DNA of 64,000 bases from Promethearchaeati archaeon. Lineage in GTDB: Archaea > Asgardarchaeota > Heimdallarchaeia > Heimdallarchaeales > Heimdallarchaeaceae. The stretch lies in NCBI GenBank assembly GCA_013166775.1, contig JABLTJ010000004.1, positions 105,834 through 169,833 of the forward strand, in the 5' to 3' direction. Below are positions 1,021 through 7,790 of the stretch, piece by piece. Both the position numbers and the translations under genes were made by a program. Numbering within the stretch: the stretch's first letter is position 1; the number at the start of each line of letters is the position of its first letter. The notes under the pieces were generated by a model, which was not told the DNA's origin, made no database searches, and saw nothing but the letters and a program-made list of their open reading frames with translations.

Positions 1021-3378
1021 CTAATTTACCATTTCTTCTAAGAATTCACTGTACTTAATTAGATTATCTTGACAATATCTTCTTATTACCCTTGTATGTG
1101 ATTTAACGATTAGGTTATTTAGAAACTTTAGTTTCTTATTTTTCTTTATTGTATTCAGAATACCAACAACGATTTCAGCTTTTAATCCCTTAGATTTCTC
1201 AATGAATTGCTTCCTTGATTTCGCAGTCATTTTAGTTAGCCCTTTAACTATACCATCGACACTATCTACACCTAAATAATTTAATGAAGAAATTCCAACC
1301 CTAGCATTACCTTCAACTATCTGGTTGACTGTTTCTTGTATTATTTCAATATCCTGAGCAATAGCAAGGAGAAGTATTAATCGTTCTTTTGCTTTTTTGT
1401 TCCTTTCCTTTTGGAAGAATTTCCTCAATGGTTGAATCGCTGATTTTTCCATTTTTTCGATTATTTTTCGAAGATTATTGAACCATTTATCCTCAGCACT
1501 TTTTAGATTAGGAAGAATCAATTCGAGTGTTTTACTTTCCATTTTGCTTAATGCACTTATGGTAGACTTTACAAGATGCTGATTTGAAGAAGTTAATTGT
1601 TGGGAGAGTTTCTTTACAATGGGAGAACCTATTTTTACTGCAGCATAAATTGAAGCTTCTCTGACCAATTCTTTAGATCTCTTCATATTATTAATAATAA
1701 CATCAATAACGCCTGGATCTTGCAATTCACCTAGAGCTCTTGTTGAAATTTCTGCTATACCGTCATCATTATCTTTTGCAGCTTTTATTAATGAAATGAG
1801 AGCTCTCTTACTTTTTATTTTTCGTAAAGATTCAACAGCTTTTCGTCTTAATTTAATATTAGGGTCTGATAAGATTGATGAGAGGATAGGAACTGATTTA
1901 GTACCAAGATGAGACAACAAATCACAAGATTTTTCTCTAATTTCTGGATCTATCTCCTTCAAGGATTTAGTTAATAAATCGAAGATTTCGTCGTCTTTAG
2001 ATCTTATTTTTCCTTTATGGAGAGCGAATGAATAACCTAGTTCTTGCAGTTCTTCTGATGGGTAGTATAGAAATAGTATAATTCCAAGTTTCACACCTTG
2101 AGTAAGATTACTTTCAAGAAATCCATCTAGTGCGAGTTCGATATTATCTGTACCAAAATAATGTAAAACCTCCACTGCATTTTTCCTAAGTTGTAAGTCA
2201 TCATCAATCAGTTCTTCAATTAAAACCTTTATTGAGGGAGTGCCTAAAGTGAGTAGAGCTTGAGTAACAGCTTCAAGAATCGATGGATTCTTTCCTGCTA
2301 GTTGAGTTGTTAATAATCTTATTGCTCCTTCGTAACCATACTTTTGACTCATAACCAGAGTTAAACACTGTGCTGCGTTTCTCCTAACATTCCTTTTACC
2401 TTTTTGGAGAGCACTCATTAGATAATCATAACTCGATTCACCTATTCTTTTCATAGATTCAATTATGTAAGGAACGTTTCTATCTTTTTCAAGGGCAGTA
2501 ATCAAACTTGGAAGTGCTCCATTGCCAATTAAGGCTAGAGACCTTGCAGCATAATACGCAGCGGGATCACCCTTTTCAAATTGGTTTACAAGTATCCCAA
2601 TAGCTTTTTCACTCCCTAGATTCCCTAATGCTTCAATAATAGCTAATTGTGTATCTATAGAGTCCTTGAAATTTGAGAGTCTCGTGATTAAAACATCAAC
2701 ATGCTTTTGATTATCTAGATGCATCAAAATAATTGAACCATATTTAATATGCTCTTCAACATTGGAAGTCAGAATTATTTCACGAACTTGCTTTACGAAA
2801 AGATACGTAAGTTCAGGAAATTGAGTGATTGTGAGAAGAGTAAGTTCGGTGAAAATAGGATTAGTTTGCTTTAATCTATAAGAGAGAATTTTCTTTATTT
2901 CCTTAGATTGCTCATCAATAAATTGAAAATTAATGAAAGTGTCATCATAATTTGATAAGGAAGAATGACAGGTTCTGATGGCAATTTCAGTTAGAGTCGC
3001 TAGAACAGGTGTAACTATTTGTGCTTTACTAATAGCAGAAAAAATCTTCTTTGCTTGAAGTGTAGAAAGTATTTCGAAGAATAATTCAAAACTCTCATCC
3101 TTGATTAAATATGTATGAATAATAGGAATAAAATACTGAAGTTTATTGACTATAACAGCTTTTATTAGATTGTCATGATTTTTAAGATATTCTTGGATTA
3201 TCTTGTCCGTTGGAATATAATCCGTACTAAATAATAATTTTGTAGCATTTACTCTAACTAGCGTATCCTTATCAGTTAGAAAATTGATCAATAAATAATA
3301 ATCTTTAATGTTTTCTAGGCTTATTTTTTCTACTTTTTCTTCTTTCAAGAGGAGTCTTTTGAGCTCTTCTTCATTCAA
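1021..3378 (-). CDS. HEAT-repeat (alpha-solenoid) protein
   Basis: Repeated ~31-aa helical hairpins such as VRRNAAQCL, LRKNAVEVL, IREKSCDLL, LRRKAVESL, AIIEALGNLG; TTG start overlaps the GTPase stop. Confidence 0.85.
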   Translation of the reverse strand: MNEEELKRLLLKEEKVEKISLENIKDYYLLINFLTDKDTLVRVNATKLLFSTDYIPTDKIIQEYLKNHDNLIKAVIVNKLQYFIPIIHTYLIKDESFELFFEILSTLQAKKIFSAISKAQIVTPVLATLTEIAIRTCHSSLSNYDDTFINFQFIDEQSKEIKKILSYRLKQTNPIFTELTLLTITQFPELTYLFVKQVREIILTSNVEEHIKYGSIILMHLDNQKHVDVLITRLSNFKDSIDTQLAIIEALGNLGSEKAIGILVNQFEKGDPAAYYAARSLALIGNGALPSLITALEKDRNVPYIIESMKRIGESSYDYLMSALQKGKRNVRRNAAQCLTLVMSQKYGYEGAIRLLTTQLAGKNPSILEAVTQALLTLGTPSIKVLIEELIDDDLQLRKNAVEVLHYFGTDNIELALDGFLESNLTQGVKLGIILFLYYPSEELQELGYSFALHKGKIRSKDDEIFDLLTKSLKEIDPEIREKSCDLLSHLGTKSVPILSSILSDPNIKLRRKAVESLRKIKSKRALISLIKAAKDNDDGIAEISTRALGELQDPGVIDVIINNMKRSKELVREASIYAAVKIGSPIVKKLSQQLTSSNQHLVKSTISALSKMESKTLELILPNLKSAEDKWFNNLRKIIEKMEKSAIQPLRKFFQKERNKKAKERLILLLAIAQDIEIIQETVNQIVEGNARVGISSLNYLGVDSVDGIVKGLTKMTAKSRKQFIEKSKGLKAEIVVGILNTIKKNKKLKFLNNLIVKSHTRVIRRYCQDNLIKYSEFLEEMVN

Positions 3379-5737: not shown

Positions 5738-5903
5738 TTTAATGACCTTTAAATATTATTACTTAAAGTTCTTTTCAGTCTTTAGGTATTTATGAATTTT
5801 TGATATCCAATAGTTTAAGGAAAAGCTTTTAAACATGAATACGACTTTTTGTTCTAATTCAAACATAAGCAAACTAAAGACAACCGATTTACAGGTGTAT
5901 TAT

Positions 5904-6323
5904 ATGAGCAAGAAAAAGAAAGATGAAAAAGAAGAAGTAGTTGAAGAGGAAGTCGAAGAAGAAGTAGGTGAAGAGGAAGCTGAAGAAAAAATAGTTGAAG
6001 AAGCAAAGAAAAAGAAGAAACCTGCTCCTAAAGCTAGAAGTGAAGAAGAGCGTCAAATAATCTACATCGGTAAGAAGAACACCATTAGCTATGTTCTCGT
6101 TGCTGTAACTATATTAAATAAGCATGATAACTGTAATATCCAAGCGAGAGGAAGGCAAATCTCTAAAGCAGTTGATGTTGCAGAGATTACTCGCAGAAAA
6201 TTCTTACAAGACATAGTTGAAGTAAGTGGTGTTATTATTGGTTCTGAAGATATCGCAAGTGATATAGAAGGAATGCCACCTAAGACTGTCTCTACAATTG
6301 AGATAATTATGAAGAAAAAATAG
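5904..6323 (+). CDS. albA: DNA/RNA-binding chromatin protein Alba with charged N-terminal extension
   Basis: IYIGKK..SYV, ARGRQISKAVDVAE and VSTIEI motifs; ATG 5904 is preceded by AGGTG and is preferred over the ORF start at 5835. Confidence 0.92.
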   Translation: MSKKKKDEKEEVVEEEVEEEVGEEEAEEKIVEEAKKKKKPAPKARSEEERQIIYIGKKNTISYVLVAVTILNKHDNCNIQARGRQISKAVDVAEITRRKFLQDIVEVSGVIIGSEDIASDIEGMPPKTVSTIEIIMKKK

Positions 6324-6380: not shown

Positions 6381-7790
6381 TTAGATGAAATCTCCTGTTT
6401 CAATCTTTTGAGGTAGATAGAAATTTGTAATATATTGTGGATCTCGAGCATTCAGAGCTTGTATTTCAGCTTTATACCCACTGGAAATTAGAATCTCTAA
6501 CTGTTCTTTCCATCTTGGTTTTCTTACTACAAATTCCTCTTCTAGCATAAGCTTAGATCTATGAATATCTTTGGCAGTCATTTTTAGGAGAGTGCTACTA
6601 GGAATATCAAAACCACTTTCTGGAGCTAGATCACTTGGAAGAAGCCCCAACCACTTAATGCTTGGTACTGCTAAATGACTAGATTCGAAGCTTAGTGCTT
6701 TGCTTCCTACACTATAAACTCTCATGATTTCAAATCCATAGGGATCGGCATCCATAATCGCAAAAATAGGGAGCTTCAATTCATCATCTATTTTTTTGAG
6801 AAACTGTCTTGTTGCAATATCTGGTTGTCCTTTTGCAGTTATTAGAATACTTGGCACATAATCATAAAAATGATCTTCTGCTAATCTATTAAAGACAGCA
6901 TCTTTTTCTATTACTAATACAAATTCTGCATCAGAATCTAAATCTTCTATGTCATCTATATTCGGTGAAATAGCTTTTCCTGCTCCAATTGCTCTACAAT
7001 TAATTAAATCACCTTTTTCCTTAAAATCTATGCGACCTACAACTATACCTTTAGAAGATGCACTTATGTTGAGTGAGGATCTAGTTACTTGCAACATTGC
7101 GCTCAAATCCTCTAATAATGAATCAGAGACAGTTTGCTTCTCAAACGAATTAACATCCATGTAAAATACATCTCTTTTGGTACTATGAATATCTCTGGTA
7201 AGAATATCGTGAATAATCCTCATAATGATAGTCATTTGTTCCACAGAGCTTACAGATGCAAGATTACGAAATTGTCGTTCAATCATTTGTCTTCCAATTA
7301 GAACGAGTTCTTGTTCTTCGTCAAATCCTACATTTGTTCCAGCTCTAGAGGGAATATAAAACGAAGCTTCAGATGGAGATAGCATTGCCTGTTGAAGAAA
7401 AGCCAAAGAGTATTCCACAAGCAAATTGTTGGTTTCTTCAGATGTTTTAGTATCTACATGAGTAACACCAAAAGGCATAAAATGATCTAATTTATGTTCA
7501 AGTTCTTTACGAACATCTTGAATCTTTTTCAGAGAAACTGCGTTTTTTATACTGATTTTCATTGTTTCCTTTTGCAAAGGGTATCTTGATAATTTTCGAG
7601 TTGATTCCAGTTTGTACCATTTCTTTGCACTTCTGAGAAATAAAACAAAAGATCCTCGCCTAAGATCAAAGGCTTCTCTAGCCCATGAATACATTTCTCT
7701 AACTAAAATTTCTTTATCAAAACTAAATGGTTTTTCCAATGCGGGTATAATTGTTGAGTTTCTAAATATGAAATTAAATTCAGGTGGCAT
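6381..7790 (-). CDS. top6A: DNA topoisomerase VI subunit A (Spo11 family) with N-terminal ubiquitin-like extension
   Basis: TKRDVFY (catalytic Tyr), VIEKDAVF, TAKGQPD, DADPYG (TOPRIM) and KAEIQAL; lies 2 bp downstream of top6B. Confidence 0.96.
   Translation of the reverse strand: MPPEFNFIFRNSTIIPALEKPFSFDKEILVREMYSWAREAFDLRRGSFVLFLRSAKKWYKLESTRKLSRYPLQKETMKISIKNAVSLKKIQDVRKELEHKLDHFMPFGVTHVDTKTSEETNNLLVEYSLAFLQQAMLSPSEASFYIPSRAGTNVGFDEEQELVLIGRQMIERQFRNLASVSSVEQMTIIMRIIHDILTRDIHSTKRDVFYMDVNSFEKQTVSDSLLEDLSAMLQVTRSSLNISASSKGIVVGRIDFKEKGDLINCRAIGAGKAISPNIDDIEDLDSDAEFVLVIEKDAVFNRLAEDHFYDYVPSILITAKGQPDIATRQFLKKIDDELKLPIFAIMDADPYGFEIMRVYSVGSKALSFESSHLAVPSIKWLGLLPSDLAPESGFDIPSSTLLKMTAKDIHRSKLMLEEEFVVRKPRWKEQLEILISSGYKAEIQALNARDPQYITNFYLPQKIETGDFI

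Follow-up and report, generated by a model that had tools for sequence, protein, structure and literature searches.

This locus raises the question of whether the catalytic subunit of an archaeal type IIB topoisomerase can begin with a ubiquitin-like domain (UBL) and, if so, what such a domain would do there. The A subunit of topoisomerase VI (Top6A) is the ancestor of Spo11, the initiator of meiotic recombination, and eukaryotes have their closest known relatives in the Heimdall group of Asgard archaea. The window, a 64,000-nucleotide stretch of a contig from one of these archaea, contains a Top6A open reading frame of 469 aa (6381-7790, minus strand), the first part of which was proposed in the initial annotation to adopt a ubiquitin-like beta-grasp fold.

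Pfam searches of the Top6A protein detected TP6A_N (5Y-CAP) at aa 183-242 (E = 5e-20) and Toprim at aa 290-463 (E = 3e-58). The catalytic tyrosine, Tyr210, lies within a conserved Lys-Arg-Asp-Val-Phe-Tyr motif, and the Toprim metal-binding residues Glu295 and Asp347/Asp349 (DxD) are all present. Residues 7-388 of the S. shibatae chain 2zbk_A aligned with aa 110-469 (E = 4e-56), and the core from aa 110 also aligned end to end with the other canonical archaeal subunits, 1d3y_A of M. jannaschii and 2q2e_A of M. mazei. The NCBIfam Top6A models aligned from ~aa 110 only, with scores below the equivalog cutoffs. As neither these models nor 2zbk_A extended further upstream, ~105 N-terminal residues are extra; aa 1-105 were covered by no solved Top6A or Spo11 chain, which bears out the view that Top6A normally lacks such a domain. 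The protein shares with canonical Top6A both the catalytic tyrosine and the Toprim acidic residues, and its gene follows that of Top6B in an operon. These analyses indicated that it is, by sequence, a topoisomerase VI A subunit with intact catalytic residues and a core that begins at about aa 105. The features of the locus are collected in Table 1.

Table 1. Features of the Top6A-Top6B operon, in window coordinates
Feature	Position	Strand	Content or basis
Top6A core, aa 104-469 and stop	6381..7481	-	Top6B-binding N-terminal segment, 5Y-CAP, Toprim; Pfam, 2zbk_A alignment, motifs
Top6A helix aa 87-103, Asgard-type extra N-terminal helix	7482..7532	-	AlphaFold models, N-terminal alignment
Top6A predicted ubiquitin-like beta-grasp domain, aa 1-86	7533..7790	-	AlphaFold, Foldseek and VIA matches, family profile against PDB ubiquitin
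aa 61-75, 9/15 match to ubiquitin 50-64	7566..7610	-	End of strand 4, 3(10) turn, loop preceding strand 5
Five-residue family-specific insertion, aa 55-59, after ubiquitin K48 position	7614..7628	-	Profile alignment; holds K56, K57, W58
Ribosome-binding site AAGGAGG, 10 nt upstream of Top6A ATG, within last Top6B codons	7801..7807	-	Sequence
Giant Top6B, 4170 aa	7793..20305	-	GHKL and transducer core, ~3500 aa of HhH-like repeats, basic tail

A start codon downstream of the N-terminal segment would remove the domain from the protein. Two observations placed the start at Met1, namely, the ribosome-binding site 10 nt upstream of the ATG and conservation from Met1 onward. All 16 database orthologues were exactly 469 aa long, with the same start Met and 60-92% identity in aa 1-110; in public annotations (Candidatus Heimdallarchaeaceae or Heimdallarchaeota) these are labeled "hypothetical protein" or "meiotic recombination protein SPO11". 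A profile of the N-terminal region detected one copy each in 39 of 41 related genomes, representing 4 families and 9 genera of the order, and these copies headed open frames of ~470 aa wherever the contig was complete. Weaker matches were present in one further family of the window's class. Overall, the region is kept as protein from Met1, stop-free, in more than 50 genomes. An internal start at Met77 was considered and rejected: this Met is conserved only in the window's order, the 76 residues upstream are kept as protein, and the ribosome-binding site precedes Met1. The UBL profile also matched weakly at a second site, G024:C78:16983-17156 (minus strand; E = 0.006); this sequence has five stop codons inside and may be a decayed fragment or a chance match.

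The fold of aa 1-86 was predicted with AlphaFold in two separate runs. With close orthologues as the alignment, one of five models was confident (pLDDT of ~84 over aa 1-103; the other four, 38-46). With alignment A4, which comprises 30 homologous domains from six families at 16-71% identity with the window sequence placed first, four of five models reached a pLDDT of 79-81 with identical topology. DSSP analysis of two models assigned strands at aa 4-11, 18-25, 48-54, 57-60, and 77-83, a helix at aa 30-40, and a 3(10) turn at aa 67-69, followed by the helix at aa 87-103. The topology in both runs is thus beta-beta-alpha-beta-beta-3(10)-beta, a ubiquitin-like beta-grasp in which a mixed sheet packs around a single helix, and the strand, strand, helix, and strand guessed from the letters in the initial annotation agree with the predicted strands 4-11, 18-25, and 48-54 and helix 30-40.

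Comparison of the models with solved structures by use of Foldseek ranked ubiquitin and UBL domains at the top (target TM of 0.7-0.84), and in a Foldseek-independent structure search the best 50 matches were all ubiquitin-like domains. Matches to solved ubiquitin or UBL domains had Z values of 10-12.3 and rmsd values of 1.6-2.6 over 72-82 residues. For the first model, the best match was the TBCE UBL (Z = 12.2; rmsd of 2.4 over 81 residues), while the second model matched TBCE at a Z of 12.3 and ISG15 at 12.2 (rmsd of 1.7-1.8), SUMO1 at 11.4, and the ubiquitin of Caldiarchaeum at 11.1. The nearest known structures, which share the same beta-grasp topology, were the UBLs of TBCE and TBCB (Ubiquitin_2), the DUSP-UBL of USP11 and USP15, and the C-terminal domain of ISG15 (Z of 11.5-12.3; rmsd of 1.7-2.6 over 75-82 residues). 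The Z value was 10.3 against ubiquitin and 11.1 against the archaeal ubiquitin of Caldiarchaeum subterraneum, and sequence identity to any solved UBL was 7-20%. An independent model was available for a cluster of Heimdall Top6A proteins in the ESM Atlas; this had a TM of 0.72 over 96 residues to the AlphaFold model, and the cluster bears the automatic name "ubiquitin-like protein". An ESM Atlas feature search with aa 1-106 returned nothing usable.

The proposal of a ubiquitin-like domain had started from a gapless alignment of aa 61-75 to ubiquitin 50-64 with 9 of 15 residues identical, and this match proved to be exact. It is the best-scoring 15-mer against ubiquitin within Top6A and the sole 15-mer with at least 8 ubiquitin identities across the window's open frames of at least 100 aa. 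When aa 1-105 were shuffled 3000 times with composition preserved, nine identities were never obtained and eight were obtained only twice. With 3.5 bits per ubiquitin unit, the bare 15-mer falls short of significance in a profile search. A first profile search of the PDB, which used close orthologues only, was discounted, as the polyubiquitin E-values that it produced were the sum of nine weak repeats of 3.5 bits each, and a diverse profile was used instead. The A4 family profile matched mono-ubiquitin chains in the PDB over ubiquitin 7-69 (E = 6e-5 to 9e-4; 22-26 bits). The resulting alignment set L61-E75 on ubiquitin L50-E64, in the register first proposed, and contained the five-residue insertion following ubiquitin K48. 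Core residues equivalent to ubiquitin L43, F45, L50, L56, Y59, L67, and L69 are retained in the Top6A domain.

Several family members could be assigned directly. Copies from genus g33 pass the Pfam gathering thresholds for ubiquitin (31-32 bits) and Rad60-SLD (33-35 bits), and one fragment passes that for Ubiquitin_2 (23.7 bits). The window's own Top6A sequence matched no Pfam ubiquitin family, and single-sequence scans of aa 1-100 with Pfam and NCBIfam yielded only a sub-threshold YlbE match. Membership in the ubiquitin family (PF00240 and related), as judged by these profiles, is thus a property of the domain family by transitivity and not of the window sequence alone. A library-wide profile search recovered more distant Top6A-linked copies and, beyond these, only polyubiquitins.

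These data bear on the possibility that the similarity to ubiquitin is due to chance or that the region lies upstream of the true start and is untranslated. The failure of the window sequence alone to match Pfam and the 3.5 bits of the isolated 15-mer would be expected in that case, but the stop-free conservation of protein from Met1 across more than 50 genomes, the ribosome-binding site upstream of the ATG, the confident and repeatable fold predictions, and the significant match of the family profile to ubiquitin would not, and we regard this explanation as vanishingly improbable. Agreement between the two AlphaFold runs, the structure matches, and the family profile upholds the proposal that Top6A begins with a ubiquitin-like beta-grasp domain and supports the assignment of aa 1-86, as modeled, to an integral ubiquitin-family domain.

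Gly-Gly was absent from the whole of Top6A and from all 30 of the aligned domains, and the chain continues into helix 87-103; hence, as had been anticipated, the domain is integral and not a cleavable modifier. The sequence is that of a built-in domain, predicted to be neither cleaved off nor conjugated. In lacking Gly-Gly and running on into its host protein, it resembles the integral type-2 UBLs. It differs from them in its host, the catalytic subunit of a type IIB topoisomerase, and in the extra five-residue Lys-Lys-Trp insertion after the ubiquitin K48 position. Unlike ubiquitin itself, the Top6A domain has no C-terminal Gly-Gly, is not free-standing, is basic, and has Lys and Ser in place of H68 and V70 of the Ile44 patch.

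The extent and origin of the addition were examined by comparison with other Asgard proteins. An N-terminal alignment indicated that, in Asgard Top6A proteins without the UBL, the start lies shortly upstream of the helix equivalent to aa 87-103. An extra N-terminal helix is known in Asgard and eukaryotic TopoVIA (Brinkmeier et al. 2022, PMC9665070); it corresponds to helix 87-103 and is common to the non-UBL Asgard proteins, and that paper reports the helix only and does not contain the word ubiquitin. As the non-UBL proteins start at this known helix, the novelty comprises aa 1 to about 84. In 161 genomes surveyed from the phylum, Top6A frames were mostly 397-425 aa in length; those of ~462-483 aa came from five families of the window's class (f1-f5) and from f20, a family that is not in this class. 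All 13 of the long Top6A proteins that were extracted matched the UBL profile, compared with 0 of 18 others. When a maximum-likelihood tree was built from the last 345 aa, i.e., from the core alone, a branch with support of 100/99 separated the 13 UBL-bearing cores from the rest, a result consistent with a single fusion of the UBL to Top6A, as read from these sequences. The UBL is missing from the 403-aa Top6A of family f7, which belongs to the window's class.

The partner subunit is also atypical. The stop codon of Top6B lies 2 nt before the Top6A ATG, the transducer match has an E value of 3e-53, and the 4170-aa protein was the sole Top6B found in the genome; the giant Top6B and UBL-Top6A pair was likewise the only topoisomerase VI found there. 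In all seven fully readable loci, the gene upstream of UBL-Top6A encoded a large Top6B (4170, 4185, 3473, 2314, 2324, 2293, and 2286 aa), and an eighth locus contained 856 aa of a Top6B arm before being cut off. Top6A proteins without the UBL adjoined Top6B proteins of 564, 660, 674, and 1123 aa. Co-occurrence of UBL-Top6A with giant Top6B in related genomes, which the initial annotation had put forward as a check, therefore held in every locus examined. The giant Top6B proteins are colinear with that of the window through at least about aa 1112, and their extension gives helix-hairpin-helix (HhH) matches. Together, the UBL and a Top6B of 2300-4200 aa mark a distinct and probably much larger form of topoisomerase VI. 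Both forms can be present in one genome: genus g33 (family f20) has tandem topoisomerase VI operons at L021 (G119:C6:510000-529999), with the same layout in L033. The canonical operon (Top6B of 564 aa and Top6A of 389 aa) is followed by a 972-aa HEAT-repeat protein and then by a 2293-aa Top6B and UBL-Top6A. The HEAT neighbor was rejected as a conserved partner, since the g33 protein and a 785-aa repeat protein of the window (1021-3378, minus strand) are alike at the level of repeats only (24-33%, with several off-diagonal alignments).

Additions of HhH modules to topoisomerase VI were also observed outside the UBL lineage. In a genome of family f7, a 1123-aa Top6B (L025:1577-4945, minus strand; G077) has a C-terminal extension with strong HHH_5 and IMS_HHH matches and lies beside the 403-aa non-UBL Top6A; this arm could represent an intermediate state or have arisen independently. 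In family f11, Top6A occupies a 714-aa frame (L031:757-2898, minus strand; G184) with a Lys-rich N-terminal extension that contains HHH_5 modules, and Top6A frames of 650-950 aa occur in other f11 genomes; this is a second, independent route of HhH addition. The presence of an HhH arm without a UBL in f7 and of HhH modules on Top6A itself in f11 indicated that the UBL is tied to the giant arm specifically and not to HhH additions generally. The two features mark a single clade, and so shared ancestry alone could, on this sequence evidence, account for their co-occurrence.

The surface of the domain was then considered as a guide to its role. In the A4 alignment, K56 is conserved in 90% of sequences, K57 in 70%, and an aromatic residue at position 58 in 93%. 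The conserved non-core positions are N11/S12, R53, K56, K57, aromatic 58, K82, and K/R83. N11/S12 sit in the turn between strands 1 and 2, the position of the ubiquitin L8 loop, and the basic and aromatic positions map, on alignment to ubiquitin, beside G47/K48 and R72, around the Ile44-patch face. Hydrophobic residues are kept at the equivalents of L8 and I44 (I15 and L50), whereas those of H68 and V70 are K78 and S80, so that the classical patch is kept only partly. The UBL is the most basic part of Top6A, with a net charge of +8 over 86 aa versus -17 for the core and a pI of about 10. Net charge is positive in 26 of the 30 family domains and acidic in four, which makes it unlikely that electrostatics alone would account for the role of the domain.

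In solved holoenzymes, the segment downstream of the added domain meets the Top6B transducer. This position and the strict pairing with giant Top6B favor a role as a docking module. The UBL would sit at the A-B junction, the site at which the giant arm emerges from the Top6B transducer, and would most likely bind through the face equivalent to the ubiquitin Ile44 patch, ringed by R53, K56, K57, W58, K82, and K/R83. The favored partner, at a guess, would be either the arm's proximal portion or DNA held at that site. Overall, we consider it probable that an integral UBL was fused to Top6A once, has been kept only in the lineage with a giant-arm Top6B, and acts as a docking module at the A-B junction. 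A complex prediction between the UBL (A4) and Top6B aa 540-1110 (alignment A5, the part of the arm that is colinear in all giant Top6B proteins) returned a score of 0.00 against a mark of 0.32, giving no answer either way.

Other roles can be envisaged for the domain. In eukaryotes, UBL and UBX domains recruit unfoldase- and proteasome-type machines, and the Top6A domain might similarly be a handle for trans factors, such as ubiquitin-binding receptors or a Cdc48/proteasome-type unfoldase, by which Top6A caught in covalent complexes with DNA would be extracted or degraded. Its fold is nearest to those of receptor-handle UBLs, e.g., Dsk2, Ddi2, UBX, and Nub1; the L8 and I44 positions remain hydrophobic; and the genome has ubiquitin-family genes of its own, with two PF00240 matches above threshold. 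However, K78 and S80 replace residues of the classical patch, and recruitment in trans would leave the strict pairing with giant Top6B unexplained, so that this seems an improbable function. We similarly give a low probability to the broader idea that the UBL brings an Asgard ubiquitin receptor, a Cdc48/proteasome-type machine, or another trans partner to a type II topoisomerase. If true, such a recruitment handle would be an archaeal forerunner of the eukaryotic ubiquitin/SUMO-guided handling of topoisomerase-DNA covalent complexes, situated in the lineage closest to the ancestor of Spo11, which may once have carried a UBL. The genome encodes free-standing ubiquitin-family proteins at G000:C27:11419-11616 and G000:C102:26182-26343, in frames of 88 and 118 aa, and the Top6A UBL profile matches these two weakly (12.6 and 9.0 bits).

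The basic charge of the domain raises the possibility of contact with DNA, either flanking the gate segment or at a DNA crossing; M. mazei Top6B is reported to make such contact through an additional domain at its C-terminus. The predominance of net positive charge in the family and the conserved cluster of Lys/Arg and aromatic residues would suit such a function, as would the RNA binding of a structural neighbor, the SF3A1 UBL. Four members are net acidic, however, a Lys-rich composition is expected at a genome GC content of ~32%, and no nucleic-acid-binding family was matched; DNA contact as the main role therefore appears unlikely. By analogy with human SMCHD1, the UBL might instead act as an intramolecular or dimer-stabilizing strap. 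SMCHD1 is a GHKL ATPase related to Top6B in which an N-terminal UBL is needed for ATP-dependent dimerization, and constructs without the UBL fail to dimerize (PMC6620310), providing a precedent for a UBL that supports assembly within a GHKL/transducer DNA-associated machine. In SMCHD1, a chromatin protein of eukaryotes, the ATPase chain itself carries the UBL, and the likeness shown between that domain and the Top6A UBL is one of fold. The UBL described here belongs to the A subunit, whereas the GHKL domain, from which it is distant in sequence, belongs to the B subunit; canonical topoisomerase VI, moreover, dimerizes without any such domain, which makes a strap very improbable. Docking at the A-B junction remains our preferred reading.

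The Top6A UBL is not mentioned in the topoisomerase VI/Spo11 surveys PMC9665070 and PMC11302465 or in the Asgard replisome study PMC12680538. A full-text literature search pairing a ubiquitin-like domain with topoisomerase VI returned only SMCHD1 and one GHKL review, and the only prior trace of the domain that was found was the automatic ESM Atlas cluster name. The predicted domain is a new case of the ubiquitin fold as a fixed module in archaeal DNA machinery, and its ~86 residues offer a defined experimental handle on the giant topoisomerase VI.

Two further features of these loci were noted. In f5 genomes (L023:6910-11438 and L024:7083-11597, plus strand), giant Top6B is immediately preceded by two open frames, one of ~670 aa and one of 840-856 aa, and the first of the two contains a putative gyrase B-like motif. 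In the window, a 162-aa Alba-family chromatin protein (5835-6323, plus strand; Pfam Alba at aa 75-131, E = 1e-13) is encoded convergently with Top6A and has an unusual N-terminal extension of ~70 aa that is rich in Glu and Lys.
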